Notes under the pieces: model-generated
Told to the model about the DNA's origin: nothing
Seen by the model: only the letters and a program-made list of their open reading frames with translations
Database searches by the model: none
Virus record (IMG/VR): IMGVR_UViG_3300037261_000110
From: a virus
Taxonomy: Duplodnaviria; Heunggongvirae; Uroviricota; Caudoviricetes
DNA length: 64,000 nt
Reading direction: 5' to 3' (one strand)
Position numbers and translations under genes: made by a program
Shown here: piece after piece, positions 1 to 61,717 of the stretch
How positions within the stretch are numbered: position 1 is the first letter of the stretch
Layout of the letters: every line of letters starts with the position of its first letter

Positions 1-66
1 ACCTAGCCCGATCTGATAGAATCTAAGGATAGCAAGGGGAAACGCTCGCCGAGCGCTCCCATGTCG

Positions 67-166
67 CGGTAAGGTGAAGGATTAACCTTACCCAGGATGG
101 TTAACGAGCGCCGTTAACCTTACCGAGTGTGGTTAACGGCGTTAACCTTACCCAGCATGGTTAACG
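67..166. repeat. Three tandem ~28-33 bp repeats, each with internal dyad symmetry (CGTTAACC-N11-GGTTAACG), preceded by a GGTAAGG/CCTTACC inverted repeat
   Basis: Seen directly: ttaaccttacccaggatggttaacg / cgttaaccttaccgagtgtggttaacg / cgttaaccttacccagcatggttaacg. Confidence 0.8.
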
Positions 167-190
167 TCGCCGCCTGGGCGCCAAAAACCC

Positions 191-260
191 GCGACTTAGG
201 CGGCGACTTAGGACCGGCGACTTAGGCGGCGACTTAGGATCACGATCGCCGCGACTTAGG
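191..260. repeat. Five direct copies of the 10-mer GCGACTTAGG at 12-22 bp spacing (iteron-like array)
   Basis: Seen directly: copies begin at 191, 203, 217, 229 and 251. Confidence 0.85.
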
Positions 261-566
261 ATCGCCAGCCGAAACCAAAATTGAATTGTCCAGCTCGAAT
301 TTTTAGCAAAAAATTGCTAGAAGCCAGCAAATTAGAAATCCATGCTACTTTCTCGTTGACTTAGCAAATTTTTCATGCTACGAAGCCTTCTGCCGACTGA
401 CCAAGCGCACCTGCTGGCACGAGATCAGTCGATGAGTCCCTGGTTAGCCGTGCCTCCTCACGGTGAGCTGCCTCTGATGCGGTGTTCATGACGCACCAGA
501 CGACTTCCGGGACGATCCTCAGCTCTCCGGCTGTACCTTTCTCGTTTGGTGCGGTCGGAGAGCTGA

Positions 567-622
567 CTTATCAGGTCATAGCTTGATTTATCATACGATT
601 TATCAGGTCACAGCCTGATTTT
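567..622. repeat. Two direct repeats TTATCAGGTCAyAGCyTGATTT, each with internal TCAGG/CCTGA dyad (operator-like)
   Basis: Seen directly in the sequence. Confidence 0.7.
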
Positions 623-708
623 TCGCCAAAATAGTAGATTAGAGCCTCATTTATACTATGATTGCCAATTGTTAATGAAAGCAACGCGCAAGTATAGCGC
701 AAGCAACA

Positions 709-805
709 CAAATTCATAAAAAGCGGACCCATCAAATTCATAAAAAACGGAGATGGGCTAAGTTTTTGGTTTTGCTGGCGATTTCGAGCTGGCAAATTCA
801 TAGAA
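709..805. repeat. Three copies of CAAATTCATA(A/G)AA; the first two extend to the 19-mer CAAATTCATAAAAARCGGA
   Basis: Seen directly; lies upstream of the small plus-strand ORF at 816. Confidence 0.7.
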
Positions 806-975
806 TGAGGAAACTATGAATTTTTTAGACTACTTGAACTACTATACGCAGAAATTGGCGTTACTTTCGTTCGGCTGGGAGGGATTTTTCACGATTCGGG
901 TCGATTCGCTCGCACACTGGACGAGCGCCTTATTCAACCAATCGGTTAAACGACCTATATTAGCGTTTGCTAATA

Positions 976-3879
976 CTATCTTAGCGGTCTACCGCGAAAA
1001 ATAGCCGTCATGATTGTAGGCTCCTCGAAGCCACGAGCGGCGATCTCCTTTTGAATTTGCTCAAGCCCGCCGATAAGGTTGCGAACTGGCGGTAATCCAA
1101 TATAATTTCGACCAGCCACTATACTTTTCGGTAAGGTACCGTCCTTTGGATTTGGCAAGGTACCTGCCTGAGAATCTGACAAGGTACCTGCTCCCTCAGA
1201 ATCTTTACGGTCCTCAGTCAGCTCTTGAAGCTTCGCCTCAACTTCCTTCCTCGCCTTTTCATTGTAGTTGCGAGAGCCAGCATAGCCGACGCCAGTCAGA
1301 CGCTTAGTACCGTACTTACGCTTCGGACGCGCCCAAGCGAGATATTGCGAAGTCGAGTCGCCCTGATCCTTGTACTTGGTCTCAGGCCAACCAAATATCT
1401 CAGCTTCATATTCTGCTAGCCACCCTGAATTCTCAGGTAGATGGACCAGATGCGCTTCCATCATTGGCGTCACACCATCCATGCGAAACTCTTTCGTAGC
1501 GTTATCAGTTGAGATAGCGATAACTGCACGCGGGCAATGTGGCGAGTTTGGATCGGATTGCTGCTGAATGTACTGAGTACCAGAACCCTTGTCTTCGACG
1601 AGAACACAATCCACATCTCTCAGCTCAGCAAGCTTGTTGAGCTTGTTTGCCATCTCAAAGAACTCCACACGCTTGCGGTAGACCTCGATCAAGTAGTGAT
1701 GGTTATCTTTAGTTTCATCCCAAATCGTTGCAACCGTATAAGCTGCACGCTCGTTGTTCTTGTTGGCAGTGTCGACTGACATAACACGACGCTTCACGTC
1801 TTTGCGCTCAGGACCGATGCGATAGCGTGTACTTGTGAACCATTCACGCTTGATGACGCCACCTTGCTCGTCGATCGGCTTGCCCATATACAAGCTGTTC
1901 CAATCCTTTGCGGATTGCTCAGACTTGATCTGCGCGAGAACATCTTTCGAAAAGAACTCAGGCCAAAGCGGATCACCAAACTGGCGTCCGATTGGATCGG
2001 GAACTGAATCGTCCAAGTAAATTGCCGGCAGGTTAATGATTTCCCAAGGGGCTCCATCGACCATACCTGCCTTGATCATCTTGTTTTCGGCCTCTAGGCG
2101 TCCGCAAAGATCGTCCGAATGCCAGCGCGTCGCCACTATGAACAGTGGAGCTTTGGGAAGCAGACGCGTAAGGTAGTCAGCCTTGAACCAAGCATAGGTT
2201 TTATTGCGGATCGTATCGGATTCCGCATCCTCTCTCGACGCAAATGGATCATCGACGCCAGCAAGATTAGTTCTGAAACCTGCAATTCCTTGTCCGACAC
2301 CACGTGTCAGATAAGCAGAGCCGTTATTTAGCACCCAATATCCGGCGGCGCGCGAAGCTGTGCTTAGCTGTATGTTCGGAAACACTTCAGCATAGCGATC
2401 AGACTCAATTATATCTCTGCACTTCTTACCAAATTCGTTCTCGACGAAGTTCTGGCTGTGTCCGGCTTGAAGATATTTCGTCTTTGGAGCAACACCCATC
2501 TTCCAGGTTGGAAATAAGCGCGAGGCATACGTCGAATTATGGGTTACAATATGTCCACGACCAACAAGAAACAAACCATCTTCGCGTTCGACAGTAATGC
2601 ATTGAGTCGATTGAGTTCCTTCAATCTTCTCGAACGAAATGTAACGTCCGTATTTACCTTCAAACTCAGTTGCACGACAGACCTTGCGCCATAGCTGAAA
2701 CGCACTCTTGAAGTAGAAAGACACGCGCCAATATTCACCGCAGTCTTTTCCGTTCAACATAGCACGTCCAGGGATGATTGAATTCTTCACCCCTAACGAA
2801 AACAGAAGTTCACTCACTGCGTCCCTCAAGCGAGAATTGGTTGAACAAAACGAACACTGTCCTGACGGCGAGACCGTTCCATCACTATCCATCAATCCTT
2901 GTAGAATTGATAAACGCACGTGATAAGAATTTCGAAGATACAGCTCAGGAACATGCTTATTGTTCAAGACACCAAGTGATACCAGATGCTTTCTAATGCC
3001 TAACAAACCAAATGCAGTCTTAGTTGTATGATCAGAAGTATGAACTCCGCACCATTCAATGCGCTCACGTACTTCCGGCTGATCCTTCACATCACATGTT
3101 ATTGTCGGTTGATCGGAATGCCCGTCGCCTAACCAATATCCAAGAACATAAGGATCAAGCGGAATCGTACGAGCCTTATATTCGACTGCTTCAAAATTTG
3201 GAAGTTTTGCACGGCGAGGAGATGTTCGATTGGCAAGATATTCAGTTGGATATGTCTTCCAATAATCACGCTTGCGATCTAATCGAACTGTCCACAAATG
3301 TTCCCCATCAACTAAAACAGCTTGTCCATCATCAGTGTATACACGATAGATTGTACGATTTTCAAACACCGGCGATTTTGCGATTATCTTAGTTGTTGTG
3401 CCGTCTGGTCCGTAAACCTTGTCACCGACTTTCAACTCAGCAATCGTTTTGTAACCGAGCGGAGTTGGAACCTTAGTATCCAGCACCATCGCTTTTGCAT
3501 GTCCTGGTGGCGCCGATATCATTAGACGCGAGTGCATTCCCTGTGACAAATCTGTCAGCTTATTCAGCATGAAGACATGCCAATCAGCCGGTGGTTCATC
3601 CGGAAAAATGTATTCACAATATGCAGTTAGGTCTTTTGGCGCGAGCTGAAGCAGAGCGCTCATGTACTCATTCGAAGTGCTTTCGTAAAGCTCTTCAAGT
3701 GCAATCAGCTGTTGCGCGGGATCGGTAGTACCTGTAAGTTCTATTATGAACTTAGTCTTTGTCGGCGTCAACATCGACTGACGTATCAGTGATGTTTCCA
3801 GCTCCGTCGCCACCATCTTCAGGTTCGTCAGTGACTTCCGTATCTGCTTGCGCGTCTTTTGCGAGATTATTTGCAGCAT
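976..3879 (-). CDS. terL: Terminase large subunit (TerL) interrupted by an in-frame intein. The extein N-terminus may start at the internal Met at 3816 or 3774
   Basis: Motifs: ATRWHSDDLCGRL, DGAPWEIINLP, FIVATRWH. A P-loop-like PPGHAK|S is split by about 319 aa that begin with a Hint block A and end in HN+S. Confidence 0.9.
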   Translation of the reverse strand: MLQIISQKTRKQIRKSLTNLKMVATELETSLIRQSMLTPTKTKFIIELTGTTDPAQQLIALEELYESTSNEYMSALLQLAPKDLTAYCEYIFPDEPPADWHVFMLNKLTDLSQGMHSRLMISAPPGHAKAMVLDTKVPTPLGYKTIAELKVGDKVYGPDGTTTKIIAKSPVFENRTIYRVYTDDGQAVLVDGEHLWTVRLDRKRDYWKTYPTEYLANRTSPRRAKLPNFEAVEYKARTIPLDPYVLGYWLGDGHSDQPTITCDVKDQPEVRERIEWCGVHTSDHTTKTAFGLLGIRKHLVSLGVLNNKHVPELYLRNSYHVRLSILQGLMDSDGTVSPSGQCSFCSTNSRLRDAVSELLFSLGVKNSIIPGRAMLNGKDCGEYWRVSFYFKSAFQLWRKVCRATEFEGKYGRYISFEKIEGTQSTQCITVEREDGLFLVGRGHIVTHNSTYASRLFPTWKMGVAPKTKYLQAGHSQNFVENEFGKKCRDIIESDRYAEVFPNIQLSTASRAAGYWVLNNGSAYLTRGVGQGIAGFRTNLAGVDDPFASREDAESDTIRNKTYAWFKADYLTRLLPKAPLFIVATRWHSDDLCGRLEAENKMIKAGMVDGAPWEIINLPAIYLDDSVPDPIGRQFGDPLWPEFFSKDVLAQIKSEQSAKDWNSLYMGKPIDEQGGVIKREWFTSTRYRIGPERKDVKRRVMSVDTANKNNERAAYTVATIWDETKDNHHYLIEVYRKRVEFFEMANKLNKLAELRDVDCVLVEDKGSGTQYIQQQSDPNSPHCPRAVIAISTDNATKEFRMDGVTPMMEAHLVHLPENSGWLAEYEAEIFGWPETKYKDQGDSTSQYLAWARPKRKYGTKRLTGVGYAGSRNYNEKARKEVEAKLQELTEDRKDSEGAGTLSDSQAGTLPNPKDGTLPKSIVAGRNYIGLPPVRNLIGGLEQIQKEIAARGFEEPTIMTAIFRGRPLR
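2536..3492 (-). mobile_element. Intein with a LAGLIDADG homing endonuclease domain, inserted in the TerL P-loop
   Basis: N-terminal block A-like (A)MVLDTKVPTPLGYKTIAELKVGDKV. Two LAGLIDADG motifs, LGYWLGDGH and LQGLMDSDG. C-terminus GHIVTHN followed by the +1 Ser. Confidence 0.8.
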
Positions 3880-10250: not shown

Positions 10251-10400
10251 ATGGTTCGTTTGTTACGCTGGCGCAGCTATAAGCGGTTCGATCGCATGTT
10301 TGCCAGCCGGCTCATAGCCATGGGCTATCTGTTGGCGGAATGGAAATGTTTCGAGGAGATTGGAAAAGTCTTCACAAATCGGCATAATCATCGCCCGTAA
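10251..10400 (+). CDS. Small protein, MxRLLRW family copy 2 (49 aa)
   Basis: RBS GGGGGAGAA; paralogous to 9887..10030. Confidence 0.5.
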   Translation: MVRLLRWRSYKRFDRMFASRLIAMGYLLAEWKCFEEIGKVFTNRHNHRP

Positions 10401-15514: not shown

Positions 15515-15601
15515 CCATCTTCGGCGTCAGTGCTTGCTTTATTACGCACGATTGATAAGGTCTATTTGAAACGAAAGGAGCTTAACAAAAGGAGGTTAAC
15601 A

Positions 15602-19999: not shown

Positions 20000-20191
20000 A
20001 TGACGATTTCCATCAAAGAAAGCGACCCGCCCGGCAAGATTATCGTTTTCGACAACGGACTAGAAGTCCATTGCGAACTCGAATACATGGCGGCGGCTCG
20101 ATGGGTCAAGCAAGAATTTGGGCTTACGCACAACGATATGCGCAAGCTCTTCGCCGGCTACCATGAGGATTTCAAGCAGCGCTATCCATGA
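20000..20191 (+). CDS. Hypothetical protein
   Basis: 63-aa ORF. Confidence 0.4.
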   Translation: MTISIKESDPPGKIIVFDNGLEVHCELEYMAAARWVKQEFGLTHNDMRKLFAGYHEDFKQRYP

Positions 20192-20415
20192 TAGTAGATT
20201 GGAAAAATGTAGAGGACGAACCGCTGCCTGAAATCGGTCGATTTTTTGTATGGCTTGAAGAACCGTACCTGCATTGTACACATATGCAAGTTATGGTTCG
20301 TTATTCAAATCTATCATACATTGGCGGTAGTTTTGCTTTCGATTGTAGCAAGGTTCTGTATTGGTCCTACATGCCGGAAGGCCCGAATGGGCTGAAGGAT
20401 AAGGAATGGACATGA
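20188..20415 (+). CDS. Hypothetical protein
   Basis: ATGA overlap with the upstream stop. Confidence 0.4.
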   Translation: MIVDWKNVEDEPLPEIGRFFVWLEEPYLHCTHMQVMVRYSNLSYIGGSFAFDCSKVLYWSYMPEGPNGLKDKEWT

Positions 20416-40057: not shown

Positions 40058-40911
40058 TGTCGATAGTAGCTTACTCAGCCGGGCTCGTTATCACGGATGG
40101 ACGCATAACCGTTGACGATTATATTGCGTCCGATTCGTGGGTAAAATTCCAAGAGCTGAAAAATGGCAATGGGTATATCGCGTTTACCGGCGATCTCTCC
40201 GCTTTTCAACCCATGAAGGAATGGGTAGAGGCAGGTGCCGATAATCAGGAGTGGCGTCCTAAAATAGAAGCGACGGTTATTGTGTTCGATTCCAATGGAA
40301 CGATCCGCGAGTTTGAAGATGATGGGCTTATAATTACCGAAGCGCATTACACACGTGTATGGGGCTCAGGAGCGCCGTACGCGTCAGCAGCGATGTGTGC
40401 CGGCGCTTCCCTACTGGAAGCGGTTAAGGTCGCGATCAAGTGCTGTTCGAGCTGCGGCGGCCTTATACAGACCTACGATTACCCATCTGCCTGGGTTCGC
40501 CGGATTTGCCTCCCGCGATTAAACCGGGTAGTTTTCCTTCTTCAGACGATCGCGAACTTCCTGCATCGGCGGGAACGGAATCGTGCTTGTGCGGACTCTC
40601 GTATTCGTTGTTACGACGATATCCACACCGAAGTATTTCTTCACCTTCTTCTCGAAGGCTGGATAAGGTCTGGCGCGGCGCGTTGCGCCAACGCCGGCAG
40701 TGCTCATGGCTCGACGGTAATGCTGGTAGACCAGATCGGCGTCATGCTCAGCGCCTTCATCGTCGGAAATGAAGAACGGCTCAAGATCGTCATCCTTGAC
40801 TCCGGTACGAGAACCGTTTGCACGGATCAAGTCCAGAAAGAACTCGTCTTCCGGAGGAGTCGATTGGATGACCTGTTCCTTGAGCCACTTAGTGTTCGGC
40901 GGAAAGCGTAG
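40057..40911 (+). CDS. HslV-like (proteasome beta-type, Ntn-hydrolase) peptidase. The 3' end is uncertain and the protein probably terminates near 40520-40600
   Basis: MSIVAYSAGLVITDGRIT (Thr/Ser nucleophile after Met1) and VWGSGAPYASAAMCA (HslV GSGGxYAxAA). The open frame continues only because it is antisense to the primase gene. Confidence 0.55.
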   Translation: MSIVAYSAGLVITDGRITVDDYIASDSWVKFQELKNGNGYIAFTGDLSAFQPMKEWVEAGADNQEWRPKIEATVIVFDSNGTIREFEDDGLIITEAHYTRVWGSGAPYASAAMCAGASLLEAVKVAIKCCSSCGGLIQTYDYPSAWVRRICLPRLNRVVFLLQTIANFLHRRERNRACADSRIRCYDDIHTEVFLHLLLEGWIRSGAARCANAGSAHGSTVMLVDQIGVMLSAFIVGNEERLKIVILDSGTRTVCTDQVQKELVFRRSRLDDLFLEPLSVRRKA

Positions 40912-43338
40912 AACGTTCCAATCATCTACTTCGGTATTGAGCATGTCGTAAAGGAACGCGGCTTGTACGTCCGGATCAGCCACGGCTTCGGCGAGCTTGA
41001 CAAAATACTCCTTATCACCAACCTTTTCCTCAGACGGGCTTATAATGAAGAAGCGGCGCTCGTCATAAGTTGCCGGAACAACCCATTCTTCATTCGAGAG
41101 GAAAGCGACGCGAGTATAATTGCTGCCCTGGAATGGCATCATGCCCTTGAACTCGTAGGTGATGTTCTCGCCCGTCAATAGGTGCTTTAGAACTCCTTCA
41201 CCTGCCATGTCACCCGCCCACACTGCTTCTTCGAGGCAAACATAGAGCTTGCCGAATAGATGCGCATTGAACTGTCCAACGATCTGCGTGCGATTGGCGA
41301 TCGTTTGTGCATATTGTTGGAGTAGCTTGTTCAGGAATACGTCGAAGATAAGCGACTTGCCGGTTCCCTTCTTGCCGCGCACAACTATAGCCGCGCCAGT
41401 CTTCTCGCCTGGACGTTGAAAGATGTGTGCAATCAAAGTCATCAAATACTGAAAATTTGCATCGTCGCCACGGCAGATGATGTCTTTGATGTGATTGCGG
41501 ACCAATGACCAATCGCCTTCTTCTGGTTCTAGGTTAAACCCACGCCAATGATTAAAGACGCGACCGCGTACGATGTTTGGCGGCGGTTCGAAGATCAGTC
41601 CTGCATCATAAGTTTTGCGACCATCCCATTCCATGAAGCATTTCCCGATGTTGAATTTTTTCATTTGCATGCCGGTGCCACTCGGCTGCATGACACCAAC
41701 GTTTTCGTTGCAGCGGAGCTGCTTGTAGGTTTCGACTGACATGATGTCATACGGATCGTTCGGATAGGTGGTTTTTTCATTGGCTTTCAGTACGGAAAGA
41801 TCACCCTTGATCAGGACCACGGAAAATCTTTCGGTTTCTCTTTCGAGCCGATGAAGAACTACCTCCGGAAAGTCGCCGATCTTGTCGTCTTCTTTTTTGA
41901 CTGGCGTTGCTTCCGCCTTCTGGTAGTCGGCTATCGTCTTTTTGATGACGCCGGCTTTCGCGCCTTTCGTCTTATTGTACGTGAGCGTAGCGATTTCATC
42001 AAGTTGGATCGCAGTAGGAAAAGTCTTGGCAACGGCTTTAGCGAAAGCATCGGTGTTTGTTCCGTGGATTTTGTTGTCGTCGTTTTTCAGCCAGTCGATG
42101 ACTTCGGCGGCGGACGCAAATGTCGTCTTGTTGGCTTCGGCGTCCTCTTCGTCGGCGATCTCCGCGACGAACGGCATTAGGTCTTCGACCGTGAAATTGG
42201 CTTCTTGGCAGATCAGGTCGAGTAGGTCGACGCGATCCAGCTCCGCGCATGAGTCGTGCATGCACTTGAGAATGAAGTGATGGCTGGTCGGGTCTGTGCT
42301 CGCGAAGAAACCCATGTCATCGACGTTGCCGGCGTCGCTGTGCGCGTCGTCATTGGGACAGGCGACCGTGACCTTCTGTCCATCATCCTTGCGCACGTCG
42401 AACAGGCTGCGACACATTTCGGCGGCGTCAAAGTGAGTGCTGTGCTTCGCGACGAAGCGCATGAGCCCTTCGGTTTTATGATCCTTGCGTGCTTCTTCAC
42501 CTTCTTCGATCCATGGGTTGTCTGTCTCAAAACCCTTGGGATCGATACCCTTGATTTCTTCGATATCGAGTGCTTCGCCGGTGGTGACGCGGAAAACAAA
42601 GTCGTCGCGTCCCTTGGGATGGCGCGGGGTGTACATCAGGCGGGACGGATCGGAGCACGCGCGATCGGCGGTCGCGTTCAAAAGCCTCGCCACGCCAAAA
42701 TACTTTGACTTCCACTCCTCGATAGCCTTTTTCTGGCTACCGCCGCGCTCGGCGATCACAAACGGTTTGGATAGGACCAGGATGACGCGCAGCTTCGGCA
42801 TCGGCGCGTGCTCGATTATGAGCTGGATGCCGTCATTGTCCTGAATTGTCGATGCGATATGCATCGTTTTCAGGATACTAGGGTTGACGCGTTTGATTTC
42901 GCGCATGTAGCCGATGACCTGATCATCAGTCAGCTCGGAGTCGCTCTTCGCCCAGGTCAGAACCTTGTCCTTCTTGATTTTGGTTTGGGTTCCATTGTGC
43001 GAATAGGTTGTGTGAATGATTGCGAACAGTCCAAGCTCTTCGCATTTTTTCTCTATGCGTTCGATCGAATCGCCGGTGTCGATGTCGAGAATGACAAGAG
43101 AGAGCTGATCGACGGCGGTCGATTTTCTGTCGCTTACGTTGCGCTGTCCGGAAGGCAAAACTGTGCCCTGCAAGATGGACATGCCATCCTTTTGGCCTTC
43201 TTCATGGTGCGAGAGAAATTCGACGAGCTGGCGTACAGTCGAAGTGTGGGCAGGCCACTTGAATGCACGAGCTTCCTTGGCTGACGCGATCGAAACAGTC
43301 TGGTCGAGAATTGGGCAATCTTCAAGTTCGTCTGACAT
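40519..43338 (-). CDS. Primase-helicase with an N-terminal AEP/PrimPol-like domain and a C-terminal D5/P4-type SF3 helicase domain
   Basis: LVILDIDTGD (DxD motif) and Walker A VVRGKKGTGKSL; 939 aa. Confidence 0.7.
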   Translation of the reverse strand: MSDELEDCPILDQTVSIASAKEARAFKWPAHTSTVRQLVEFLSHHEEGQKDGMSILQGTVLPSGQRNVSDRKSTAVDQLSLVILDIDTGDSIERIEKKCEELGLFAIIHTTYSHNGTQTKIKKDKVLTWAKSDSELTDDQVIGYMREIKRVNPSILKTMHIASTIQDNDGIQLIIEHAPMPKLRVILVLSKPFVIAERGGSQKKAIEEWKSKYFGVARLLNATADRACSDPSRLMYTPRHPKGRDDFVFRVTTGEALDIEEIKGIDPKGFETDNPWIEEGEEARKDHKTEGLMRFVAKHSTHFDAAEMCRSLFDVRKDDGQKVTVACPNDDAHSDAGNVDDMGFFASTDPTSHHFILKCMHDSCAELDRVDLLDLICQEANFTVEDLMPFVAEIADEEDAEANKTTFASAAEVIDWLKNDDNKIHGTNTDAFAKAVAKTFPTAIQLDEIATLTYNKTKGAKAGVIKKTIADYQKAEATPVKKEDDKIGDFPEVVLHRLERETERFSVVLIKGDLSVLKANEKTTYPNDPYDIMSVETYKQLRCNENVGVMQPSGTGMQMKKFNIGKCFMEWDGRKTYDAGLIFEPPPNIVRGRVFNHWRGFNLEPEEGDWSLVRNHIKDIICRGDDANFQYLMTLIAHIFQRPGEKTGAAIVVRGKKGTGKSLIFDVFLNKLLQQYAQTIANRTQIVGQFNAHLFGKLYVCLEEAVWAGDMAGEGVLKHLLTGENITYEFKGMMPFQGSNYTRVAFLSNEEWVVPATYDERRFFIISPSEEKVGDKEYFVKLAEAVADPDVQAAFLYDMLNTEVDDWNVLRFPPNTKWLKEQVIQSTPPEDEFFLDLIRANGSRTGVKDDDLEPFFISDDEGAEHDADLVYQHYRRAMSTAGVGATRRARPYPAFEKKVKKYFGVDIVVTTNTRVRTSTIPFPPMQEVRDRLKKENYPV

Positions 43339-43665
43339 GGTATATCCTCAAGAGGTAGTGAACGATAACGTGTCCTCCGGAGGCTTACGCGCGGTTGACG
43401 CCATCAATTCCTGTTGGTGTGAACTTGCCTTGATAGCATGATAACTTGAAATAAGCAAAGGTTTTATTAGTGACCCTAAGCTTGACACAAGTTGTTGTGG
43501 TTCACTGGAAGGCAAGCCACAGGAAAAAGAGAAACAGAGGAATGAGTAACACCAAAAATAAAGCTAGTCGTCGACCAGCTGCTTGCCTGTTGTCCGAAAT
43601 ATGTGGTACTTTTCGGTCAACGTATTTCTCTGTCACAATAGGGCCGATATAAGGCGGTTCTGTCG

Positions 43666-44256
43666 TCATCCCAAATTCCTCACTAACTTCGTAACACCTT
43701 TTGACGGTTCAATGTAGTGTTGTGTCGTCTCAATGCTCGCGTGTCCCGCGAGTTCTTGAACGTCTCGAAGCGAGCACTTGTACATGTTCACCGACCGCGC
43801 CAGAGCCGTGATCATAGAACGGCGTCCAGAGTGGCTGGAAGCCCCCTGGAAGCCAGCGCTGCGGTAGAGCTGCCAGAGATAGACCGCGATGTGGTTAGGC
43901 GTCATGGCGCCCCCCTTGACGGCGCGGATGACCCTGGTCTCCAAATAGGTAATTTTCTTACCTTGACTCAGTTCGCGGAGTGCCTGATAAAGTTCAGCAT
44001 GGATCGGAATTTGCCGTCGTTTGTCACCCTTTCCGATCACATCAAAATAGTCGGTATGGAGGCGTCCCTGTGCGTCGCACAAATTGGACCAGTCCAAATC
44101 TGCAACCTCGGATGCTCGCAAGCCGGCCCTATATGTCAGGAGAATCATCACTTTATCCCGCAGGGGATGACGCTCGTTCGCGGCAAATTTTAGAAGCTCT
44201 CGAAGTTGAGGCTCCGTCAGGATTTGCGCCTGTTTCCGCCGACGCCGTAAACGCAC
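43666..44256 (-). CDS. Minimal tyrosine recombinase (catalytic domain only, 196 aa)
   Basis: Catalytic residues R (YRAGLRASE), K (GKGDKRR), HxxR (HSGRR) and H...Y (GHASIETTQHY). Confidence 0.75.
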   Translation of the reverse strand: MRLRRRRKQAQILTEPQLRELLKFAANERHPLRDKVMILLTYRAGLRASEVADLDWSNLCDAQGRLHTDYFDVIGKGDKRRQIPIHAELYQALRELSQGKKITYLETRVIRAVKGGAMTPNHIAVYLWQLYRSAGFQGASSHSGRRSMITALARSVNMYKCSLRDVQELAGHASIETTQHYIEPSKGVTKLVRNLG

Positions 44257-55447: not shown

Positions 55448-55525
55448 AAAAATTTGCTAAAAACTTGACTCTTTCCGTTAACCGTGCTACGTAGAGAAAT
55501 CATTTTCTACGGAAGCAGCTTTTCC

Positions 55526-61045: not shown

Positions 61046-61717
61046 GTGCTTGACAGATTAACCACGATGTGCTACGACAGACAAATAATGCCGATCACGA
61101 TTTACGTCATTGAGAACGGTGTCAATGACAAGAAATATGTAGGGCAGACTTGCGGACCTGTTGATAACAGGTTCCGACAGCATTGCACTAAAAATGGCTG
61201 CACAGCCATCTATCGAGCTATCACAAAGCACGGTAGAGAACAATTTTCGATCCGTACGCTTTTCGTCTGTCCAGACGATCAAGCGTATGCAGACGAGATG
61301 GAGTGTTGCGCGATCAAGGTATTCGGAACGACGGTCCCGAATGGTTACAATCTTCAAGAAGGTGGATCGAATGGAAAGCACTCCATAAAGACAAAGGAGA
61401 AAATGTCAGCTACCGCAATGGGACATGAGGTTTCAATTGAAACGAGAGCAAAATTAGCATCTGCTAATATTGGAAATAAACATGCTCTTGGATTCAAGCC
61501 ATCAACTGAAACTAGAGCTAAAATGGCGGCAGCTCAGAGAGGTAATAAAAATCAACTTGGACTAAAACGATCGCCAGAGACTTTGATAAAGATGGCAGCA
61601 GCTCAACGAGACAAGAAGTGTTCAGCTGCCACAGCCGCTAAAATATCAGCATCACTGGTTAACTACCACAAAAACAAGAAAAAGAAGACAACAAACGATG
61701 CGCGTACTTACATTTGA
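61046..61717 (+). CDS. GIY-YIG homing endonuclease with NUMOD3 repeats
   Basis: IYVIENGVNDKKYVGQT and three repeats of SxETRAKMAAAQRGNK. Confidence 0.8.
   Translation: MLDRLTTMCYDRQIMPITIYVIENGVNDKKYVGQTCGPVDNRFRQHCTKNGCTAIYRAITKHGREQFSIRTLFVCPDDQAYADEMECCAIKVFGTTVPNGYNLQEGGSNGKHSIKTKEKMSATAMGHEVSIETRAKLASANIGNKHALGFKPSTETRAKMAAAQRGNKNQLGLKRSPETLIKMAAAQRDKKCSAATAAKISASLVNYHKNKKKKTTNDARTYI

Follow-up and report, generated by a model that had tools for sequence, protein, structure and literature searches.

Phages of the phiCbK group have a direct terminal repeat of 10 kb, the left boundary of which falls within the terminase gene terL or immediately after it (PMC3556154). TTAACCAT is a recognised half-site of the host cell-cycle regulator CtrA (PMC3692519, PMC6180460). 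Clusters of CtrA boxes have been found in the terminal repeats of phiCbK-like phages, Lacusarx and Cp1R7A-A1; in phiCbK and Cp1R7A-A1, promoters within these repeats are bound and activated by CtrA (Mascolo et al. 2022, PMC9437464). Here we describe a non-coding, repeat-rich region that occupies positions 1–815 of a 64-kb window, the whole stretch of DNA analysed, from the IMG/VR record IMGVR_UViG_3300037261_000110; the window covers 64 kb of the roughly 150 kb of an uncultivated tailed phage. In this phage, the region represents a module conserved downstream of terL among members of the phiCbK/Cp1R7A-A1 supergroup, siphophages of Alphaproteobacteria. CtrA-box-clustered control regions were already known, but the composite architecture found here, in which dyad arrays, iterons and an AT-rich tract are combined, is conserved and previously undescribed. 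Coordinates are window positions unless a locus is named, and L141, L146, L155 and the like are labels for the contigs and loci compared.

The region lies downstream of terL and beside the packaging genes, as a previous reading made from the sequence alone had it, because terL occupies the minus strand at 976–3879 with terS before it. The four repeat families noticed in that sequence-only reading (dyad units, iterons, TAGCA/TGCTA palindromes and paired longer repeats) are all present above chance and are confined to the region within the 64-kb window. Besides the resolution of the TAGCA motifs into a terminator and a promoter element, two things escaped it. First, the window edge cuts the feature: positions 1–815 are the terL-proximal two-thirds of a 1,166-nt intergenic region, and in other assemblies 351 nt more of non-coding DNA extend past position 1 (L141 13774) before a DUF932 gene begins. 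This additional DNA holds a second, inverted triple dyad array, a G11 run and one GTTAAGGTTAAT. Second, the region carries CtrA-type boxes and heads a CtrA-box-rich early block. On one side of it is the late terS-terL operon, and on the other at least 10 kb of small early-type genes, each with its own promoter, beginning with the DUF932 gene.

The array inside the window, B1, was found by repeat finders as three tandem, unstranded dyad units at 80–168. The units have the form TTAACCTTACC-N5-TGGTTAACG, lie at 82–166 with spacings of 32 and 28, and constitute dyads of 23–25 bp. Allowing up to three mismatches, the dyad pattern matches three times in the window against 0.01 expected, chance levels being taken from dinucleotide-preserving shuffles of the window. 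Read on the terL-sense strand, each unit becomes CGTTAACCAT-N5-GGTAAGGTTAACG, that is, TTAACC-type elements resembling the CtrA half-site; TTAACC(A/C/T)T is present in every unit and the half-site TTAACCAT in two of the three. The inverted triple array lies 115–202 nt beyond the window start and has a G11-12 homopolymer inside it (L141 13940–13952, 166–178 nt past the window start). Near-identical triple units occur in Mesorhizobium phage Cp1R7A-A1 and in L146, and the 12-bp repeat TGCGTTAACCAT described for the Sphingomonas phage MMDA13 gap (PMC9437464) matches the core of the window units.

The distribution of TTAACC elements around terL is strongly skewed. The 10 kb after terL, as seen in L155, contain 54 TTAACC/GGTTAA matches and ten boxes of the canonical form TTAA-N7-TTAA (N7 boxes), against four matches and no N7 box in the 12.8 kb before terL; the whole 64-kb window likewise holds no N7 box, so that none occurs in the ~77 kb examined outside that 10-kb stretch. 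The N7 boxes are intergenic and lie upstream of the L155 genes at 15587, 16094, 17373, 19483, 20637, 21925 and 22422, two of them abutting a −35 element. Two early promoters just past the window combine both kinds of element, with a dyad unit followed by GTTAACCCTTTGTTAACCAT and then the −35 element. A like architecture of dyad element and N7 box is found in the Cp1R7A-A1 probe that was used for electrophoretic mobility-shift assays, the residual shift of which was ascribed to half-sites (PMC9437464).

In these respects the window phage resembles the LPEG phages in which CtrA clusters were described (PMC9437464): its boxes are skewed in distribution, intergenic and placed beside the −35 elements of small genes of unknown function, and its TerL belongs to the clade of phiCbK-like phages and Cp1R7A-A1. 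It departs from them in the form of its units, composite dyads (TTAACCAT-N5-GTAAGGTTAAC) that are non-canonically spaced and set in two inverted triple arrays, and in that lineage-specific iterons, an AT-rich tract and a terminator accompany these arrays. The published account describes neither arrays nor iterons and predicted 20 sites per genome for Cp1R7A-A1 and 23 for CcrRogue (PMC9437464); in CcrRogue, the two post-terL arrays alone amount to 18 TTAACC-type matches.

The module recurs well beyond the window phage. A pattern search for TTAACC arrays retrieved at least 119 viral contigs, and 41 of the loci retrieved (33 after removal of duplicates) encode a TerL homologue of 31–48% identity with the arrays immediately downstream. 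With the window and Cp1R7A-A1 added, these 33 viral loci form a comparison set of 35 distinct loci. At least six TTAACC matches lie within 2.5 kb after terL in 29 of the 35, and at least four iterons stand just upstream of the distal array in 22. Outward from terL, the common plan consists of (array A), GGGACCC repeats, about 1 kb of sequence, lineage-specific iterons that often have a 26-bp period, an inverted TTAACC array B, CGTTAACCAT with a promoter, and then small genes.

Contigs selected by TerL, independently of the motif, share this plan. In L146 (TerL 76% identical), L147 (65%), and L150 and L152 (49% each), the order is terminator or hairpin, AT-rich tract, iterons, TTAACC arrays and next gene; L150 and L152 have clear intrinsic terminators in the equivalent spot just before the iterons, and L147 has about 130 nt of very AT-rich DNA beside them. 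Among cultured relatives, the module is carried by Caulobacter phage CcrRogue and Mesorhizobium phage Cp1R7A-A1. The TerL of the window phage is 29–35% identical to those of the Cp1R7A-A1/phiCbK group and 43–48% identical to those of most module-bearing viral contigs, and the iteron and TTAACC blocks keep their position and order in relatives down to about 31% TerL identity. The region aligned too poorly in a global three-way comparison to allow footprinting. Outward from terL, the full region in the window phage begins with a 3′ zone that has a small open reading frame (ORF), two small hairpins, a conserved hairpin and the convergent promoter P356. The terminator of the late operon comes next, then the AT-rich tract and the five lineage-specific iterons, and after these the two dyad arrays in inverted orientation, one within the window and one past its edge, and the first early promoter.

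In L034, and also in L036, L037, L078, L089 and L112, a cassette is repeated every 0.5–1 kb between small genes. It comprises a terminator, GGTAACC, CGTTAACCTTAAC, GTTAACCAT and GTGGAAAAAGTGCTTGACCGAATC, and as a TTAACC-bearing promoter unit it punctuates the early block. GAATC beside its −35 element is a CcrM-type GANTC site.

On balance, and with little more than even confidence, we favour the explanation that the region is a post-terL control region whose CtrA-type arrays gate the early block, with the iterons acting alongside. The TTAACC units would be clustered CtrA-type binding sites, and host CtrA~P would occupy the arrays and gate the early promoters, tying the start of the phage programme to the cell-cycle or motility state of the host. 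A phage-specified protein would bind the iterons and act with the TTAACC-bound factor at the head of the early block.

Several points weigh against this explanation. The canonical TTAA-N7-TTAA spacing is absent from the window's three units, in which TTAA elements stand 6, 13 and 19 bp apart; because the units lack it, CtrA binding to the dyads is something that we infer, and a phage-encoded reader of similar specificity is possible. In relatives, TTAA–TTAA distances peak at 6, 13, 17, 19, 21 and 27 bp and show a lesser peak at 11 bp. The phage comes from a wood-associated metagenome, and no host-linked sequence was found in the genome collection. The closest cultured TerL is that of a Microcystis phage without arrays: TTAACC arrays are absent from Microcystis phage Mwe-JY26 and roseophage DSS3P8, the most similar cultured TerLs checked, and probably from L154 as well. 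The 33 viral loci were picked by the motif itself, and their count is therefore no measure of how general the module is among TerL relatives. Finally, the iteron-binding protein is putative, 64 kb of the ~150 kb being in view.

The spacing also bears on a rival account, which we consider unlikely, in which the TTAACC dyads serve as operators for a dimeric regulator encoded by the phage, for instance a repressor of early genes, and CtrA reads the N7 boxes only. Dyads of 23–25 bp are typical of operators for dimeric regulators, their spacing differs from that of full CtrA sites, and at the early promoters dyad and N7 box stand side by side as distinct elements. However, the half-site (TTAACCAT / TTAACCCT) is that of CtrA and is kept across phages whose TerL proteins are only 31–48% identical; conservation across such divergent phages argues for a conserved, probably host, reader. 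Nor do the 25 listed of the 34 Pfam families matched by the 111 window ORFs include a helix-turn-helix repressor or winged-helix family, over half of the genome lying outside this view.

The iterons are five unstranded copies of GCGACTTAGG at 187–265, arranged as two 26-nt double units plus one. Exact copies start at 191, 203, 217, 229 and 251, giving the irregular spacings of 12, 14, 12 and 22 bp; the other matches in the window carry a mismatch and are at chance level. At the equivalent position, L146 has six copies of the window's own iteron core (CTAAGTCGC) and L147 has six copies of a different iteron, ATCCCGA. When the tandem pattern of GCGACTTAGG was searched for in viral contigs, all 15 matches were coding (GGDLGGDL repeats in unrelated proteins) and were set aside as irrelevant. 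The start of an AT-rich tract (266–303, unstranded) includes a conserved AATTCAATTTTGG-like box that directly flanks the iterons. The tract has a GC content of 36% over 281–360 and abuts the iterons, and comparable tracts lie beside the iterons of L146 and L147.

In the same phage, a second cluster of four iterons with a TTAACC module occurs 6.66 kb further on, upstream of another gene, and a related box, AAAATTCGCTGGCAAAATCG, precedes this cluster (L155 ~20186–20205). Both iteron modules share the promoter-proximal element GTTAA(C/G)(C/G)TTAATTCTT(C/T)ACCAT. Since both clusters lie directly upstream of genes that share this element, promoter control together with the TTAACC reader is the most economical reading of the iterons, which we infer to bind a phage-specified protein.

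The juxtaposition of iterons and AT-rich tract also brings to mind a replication origin. Iteron-type origins include the lambda ori, plasmid oriV and the ori/crr of satellite phage P4, and the Caulobacter chromosomal origin, Cori, is controlled by CtrA. Like these, the window has direct repeats beside an AT-rich tract, a distant second cluster, boxes for a host regulator and a promoter. It differs from them in that DnaA boxes are not enriched (8 observed against 9.5 expected in the 35 modules), no initiator gene adjoins, the iteron spacing is irregular and both clusters are promoter-proximal.

It is conceivable, though doubtful, that the iterons and AT-rich tract form an iteron-type origin to which a phage initiator such as the DUF5906 primase-helicase encoded at 40519–43338 would bind, with the flanking CtrA boxes silencing or licensing it as at the Caulobacter chromosomal origin. 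Direct repeats do abut the 36%-GC tract here as in L146 and L147, the tract lies between divergent promoters (P356 and the early promoter), and a long conserved inverted repeat is nearby. The iteron sequence is lineage-specific, as expected of sites for a cognate initiator, and the second, smaller cluster resembles the control iterons of plasmids. Moreover, phiCbK-type phages persist as episomes, for which an origin has been postulated but not located (PMC12195562). Besides the lack of DnaA-box enrichment and the uneven repeat spacing, this proposal has to contend with flanks that encode TerL, a 62-aa ORF product and the DUF932 protein, the nearest replication genes being about 40 kb off, and with a GC skew that does not change at the site. 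A purely regulatory role explains two clusters directly upstream of promoters equally well.

Unlikely, too, is the broader possibility that the module is the so far unlocated origin of phiCbK-supergroup phages in general, gated by host CtrA in the manner of the Caulobacter origin. If true, replication and the reported episomal persistence would be tied to the host cell cycle, and one motif set, shared by both boundaries of the terminal repeat, would couple the start of replication to the formation of ends. At 40519–44256 (minus strand), the DUF5906 primase-helicase-like protein (939 aa) adjoins a short tyrosine recombinase (196 aa). The window also encodes three Endonuclease VII-family proteins and two GIY-YIG/NUMOD3 proteins, likely homing endonucleases.

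The position of the module next to terL raises a further alternative, namely that TerS recognises the repeats and that they fix where a long direct terminal repeat has its left end, the module 6.7 kb away marking its right boundary. Arrays of TerS sites mixed with host-factor sites are found beside the terminase genes at lambda cosB and at the pac sites of SPP1 and P1. The window module is likewise placed beside terS-terL and mixes phage-specific sites with sites of a host-factor type; unlike those systems, its iteron does not track TerS, and in relatives the mapped cut is 1–2 kb away. We judge this role for the repeats to be rather improbable.

In its favour, synteny with terS-terL is strict across the clade, and the window phage has its two iteron/TTAACC modules 6.66 kb apart. 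The left physical end of phiCbK-like phages lies in terL codon 652, and that of Colossus just downstream of terL (PMC3556154). CcrRogue (L140) has six GGGACCC copies with an exact 24-bp period at 844–964, immediately after terL and within the left terminal repeat; in the first 11.5 kb of this genome, GGGACCC otherwise occurs only at 10277 and 10503, and the iteron core only at 1827–1919 and 10520. The annotated right boundary, at 10321, falls between these extra copies. Yet two extra copies of GGGACCC are within chance in a 66%-GC genome, the CcrRogue iterons stand some 1.8 kb away from the left cut, and the distance from motif to cut is not the same at the two boundaries. Nor does the iteron co-vary with TerS: L146 shares the iteron with a TerS of 49.5% identity, whereas L147 has a different iteron with a TerS of 61% identity. 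As potential TerS sites, the GGTACC/GGGACCC repeats beside terL are preferable to the iterons.

Those repeats have a representative in the window, additional to the families reported earlier. Three unstranded copies of AAGGTACC, containing GGTACC three times, lie at 1133–1188 with an exact 24-bp period inside the 3′ tail of terL (3 matches against 0.59 expected). They encode an insert of the form GTL-x5-GTL-x5-GTL within a variable linker of the TerL tail. Their counterpart in relatives is a set of GGTACC or GGGACCC repeats with 24–48-bp spacing just after terL. The AAGGTACC repeats may be a DNA signal within coding sequence, such as a terminase site.

In cultured relatives of the phiCbK group, the module lies 0.8–2.2 kb inside the left end of the terminal repeat; in phiCbK, the equivalent arrays are about 0.8–0.9 kb and 1.9–2.2 kb from that end. 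By analogy, the region is probably linked to a terminal repeat, and it is plausible that it is itself a terminal-repeat region in the window phage. The window has the same order as the left terminal repeat of phiCbK-like phages (Gill et al. 2012, PMC3556154), with terS, an intein-bearing terL, the non-coding repeat module and small early genes, and its GGTACC repeats near the terL 3′ end correspond to the GGTACC/GGGACCC repeats there. Unlike those phages, the termini of which are mapped, the window phage is known from the interior of metagenome scaffolds. We rejected contig ends as physical termini: two independent contigs, L142 and L143, stop at the poly-G run, which is an assembly artefact.

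Short-repeat arrays in a group whose members can persist as episomes (PMC12195562) might also suggest a centromere-like partition site for plasmid-like maintenance, and the sequence-only reading had proposed a partition-like site with multiple protein-binding arrays. The presence of several such arrays beside the packaging genes is supported, and the partition role is not. The matches listed for the 111 window ORFs include no ParA/ParB-type family, none of more than 40 loci has partition genes next to it, and the arrays lie upstream of promoters. We regard a partition function as highly improbable.

The zone between the AT-rich tract and terL contains further elements. The TAGCA/TGCTA palindromes reported at 304–381 are present, and they resolve into two different signals. 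On the minus strand, a TAGCAA...TTGCTA palindrome followed by a T-run at 304–330 scores as an intrinsic terminator on the terL-sense strand and is likely to be the end of the terS-terL transcript. On the plus strand, TGCTACG at 376 is the −10 element of the predicted promoter P356 (356–381; TTGACT-N14-TGCTACG), which points toward terL and has counterparts in the same orientation in L146 and L147. Promoters of the form TTGAC-N15-TGCTACG also occur on the plus strand at 55465–55490 and 61050–61075; both precede genes of the replication module and have a TTAACC element in their spacers.

A long inverted repeat at 519–566 (listed without strand) has a 19-bp stem and a 10-nt loop, with z = −8.75 on the plus strand. 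The hairpin is kept in L146 (7976–8019) and L147 (3173–3217), where 3 of 12 pairs have changed on both sides, that is, in a compensatory manner. Its outer stem is GCTCTCC/GGAGAGC, the changes fall in the inner stem, and the loop is pyrimidine- or purine-rich. It lies 140–180 nt downstream of the conserved terL-facing promoter, and the favoured strand varies between phages. The element might be a small RNA, or else a DNA cruciform. The small-RNA idea, which draws on the conservation of P356 and hairpin in three to four phages, is weakened by the intervening sequence, which cannot be aligned, and by the variation in favoured strand.

Beyond the hairpin, two plus-strand copies of TTATCAGGTCAYAGCYTGATTT lie at 568–589 and 600–621, against 0.00 expected. 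Each copy, one member of the TTATCAGG pair, is a palindrome with a 6-bp stem followed by a T-run, and the pair may act as weak terminators or operator sites. Three copies of CAAATTCATA(AAAA) follow at 709–806 on the plus strand, upstream of the 62-aa ORF: CAAATTCATAAAAA is found at 709 and 733, and a third, degenerate copy at 793. This last copy contributes to a perfect 10-nt inverted repeat, AAATTCATAG / CTATGAATTT (794–803 / 814–823), which encloses the ribosome-binding site of the 62-aa ORF, takes in its start codon and may exert translational or operator control.

Like the hairpin, one further repeat was additional to those previously noticed: two boxes of 18–20 nt at 261–299 recur at 763–800 as reverse complements, 482–483 nt away. 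They keep their order (a b ... a′ b′) and hence do not form a simple inverted repeat. An invertible segment between them was considered and rejected, as the sub-boxes are not mirrored and all seven assemblies have one orientation.

The non-coding character of the region, also part of the sequence-only reading, holds for positions 1–815. The ORF listing contains no convincing ORF there, and gene callers call nothing in five independent assemblies; the one long ORF (571–801, minus strand, 76 aa) was rejected as a low-complexity translation of the repeats. A well-supported ORF of 62 aa does begin immediately afterwards, at 816. It extends to 1004 on the plus strand, has a GAGGAA ribosome-binding site, and is convergent with terL, which it overlaps by 29 nt. 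It is annotated as a gene in L141–L143, L155 and L156; no gene is called there in L146, and no homologues of it were found. The terL ORF itself is 967 aa long and contains a LAGLIDADG-type intein; the TerL of the closest relative, L146, has 562 aa and no intein.

A comparison of window positions 1–1000 with deposited phages gave no match at the level of DNA similarity, and Rfam and tRNA scans returned nothing relevant. TerL-based locus searches of viral, metagenome and genome collections found no close relatives; a separate protein search recovered the window's own TerL on scaffolds of 149–153 kb and several shorter contigs. The window sequence is interior to these 149–153-kb scaffolds, and the region is 99.9–100% identical across seven assemblies of the phage.

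The 'lytic deferment' of phiCbK-type phages under CtrA and their episomal persistence are recent ideas for which the cis-acting DNA is unmapped. A defined module of terminator, AT-rich tract, iterons and TTAACC half-site arrays recurs after terL in dozens of phages, both uncultivated and cultured, and published box-based scans would largely miss its arrays because their spacing is non-canonical. The module offers concrete segments of 100–300 bp for assays of CtrA binding, origin activity and terminase recognition in phiCbK or Cp1R7A-A1, and it extends the CtrA-box signature to a new, uncultivated lineage of 150-kb phages.

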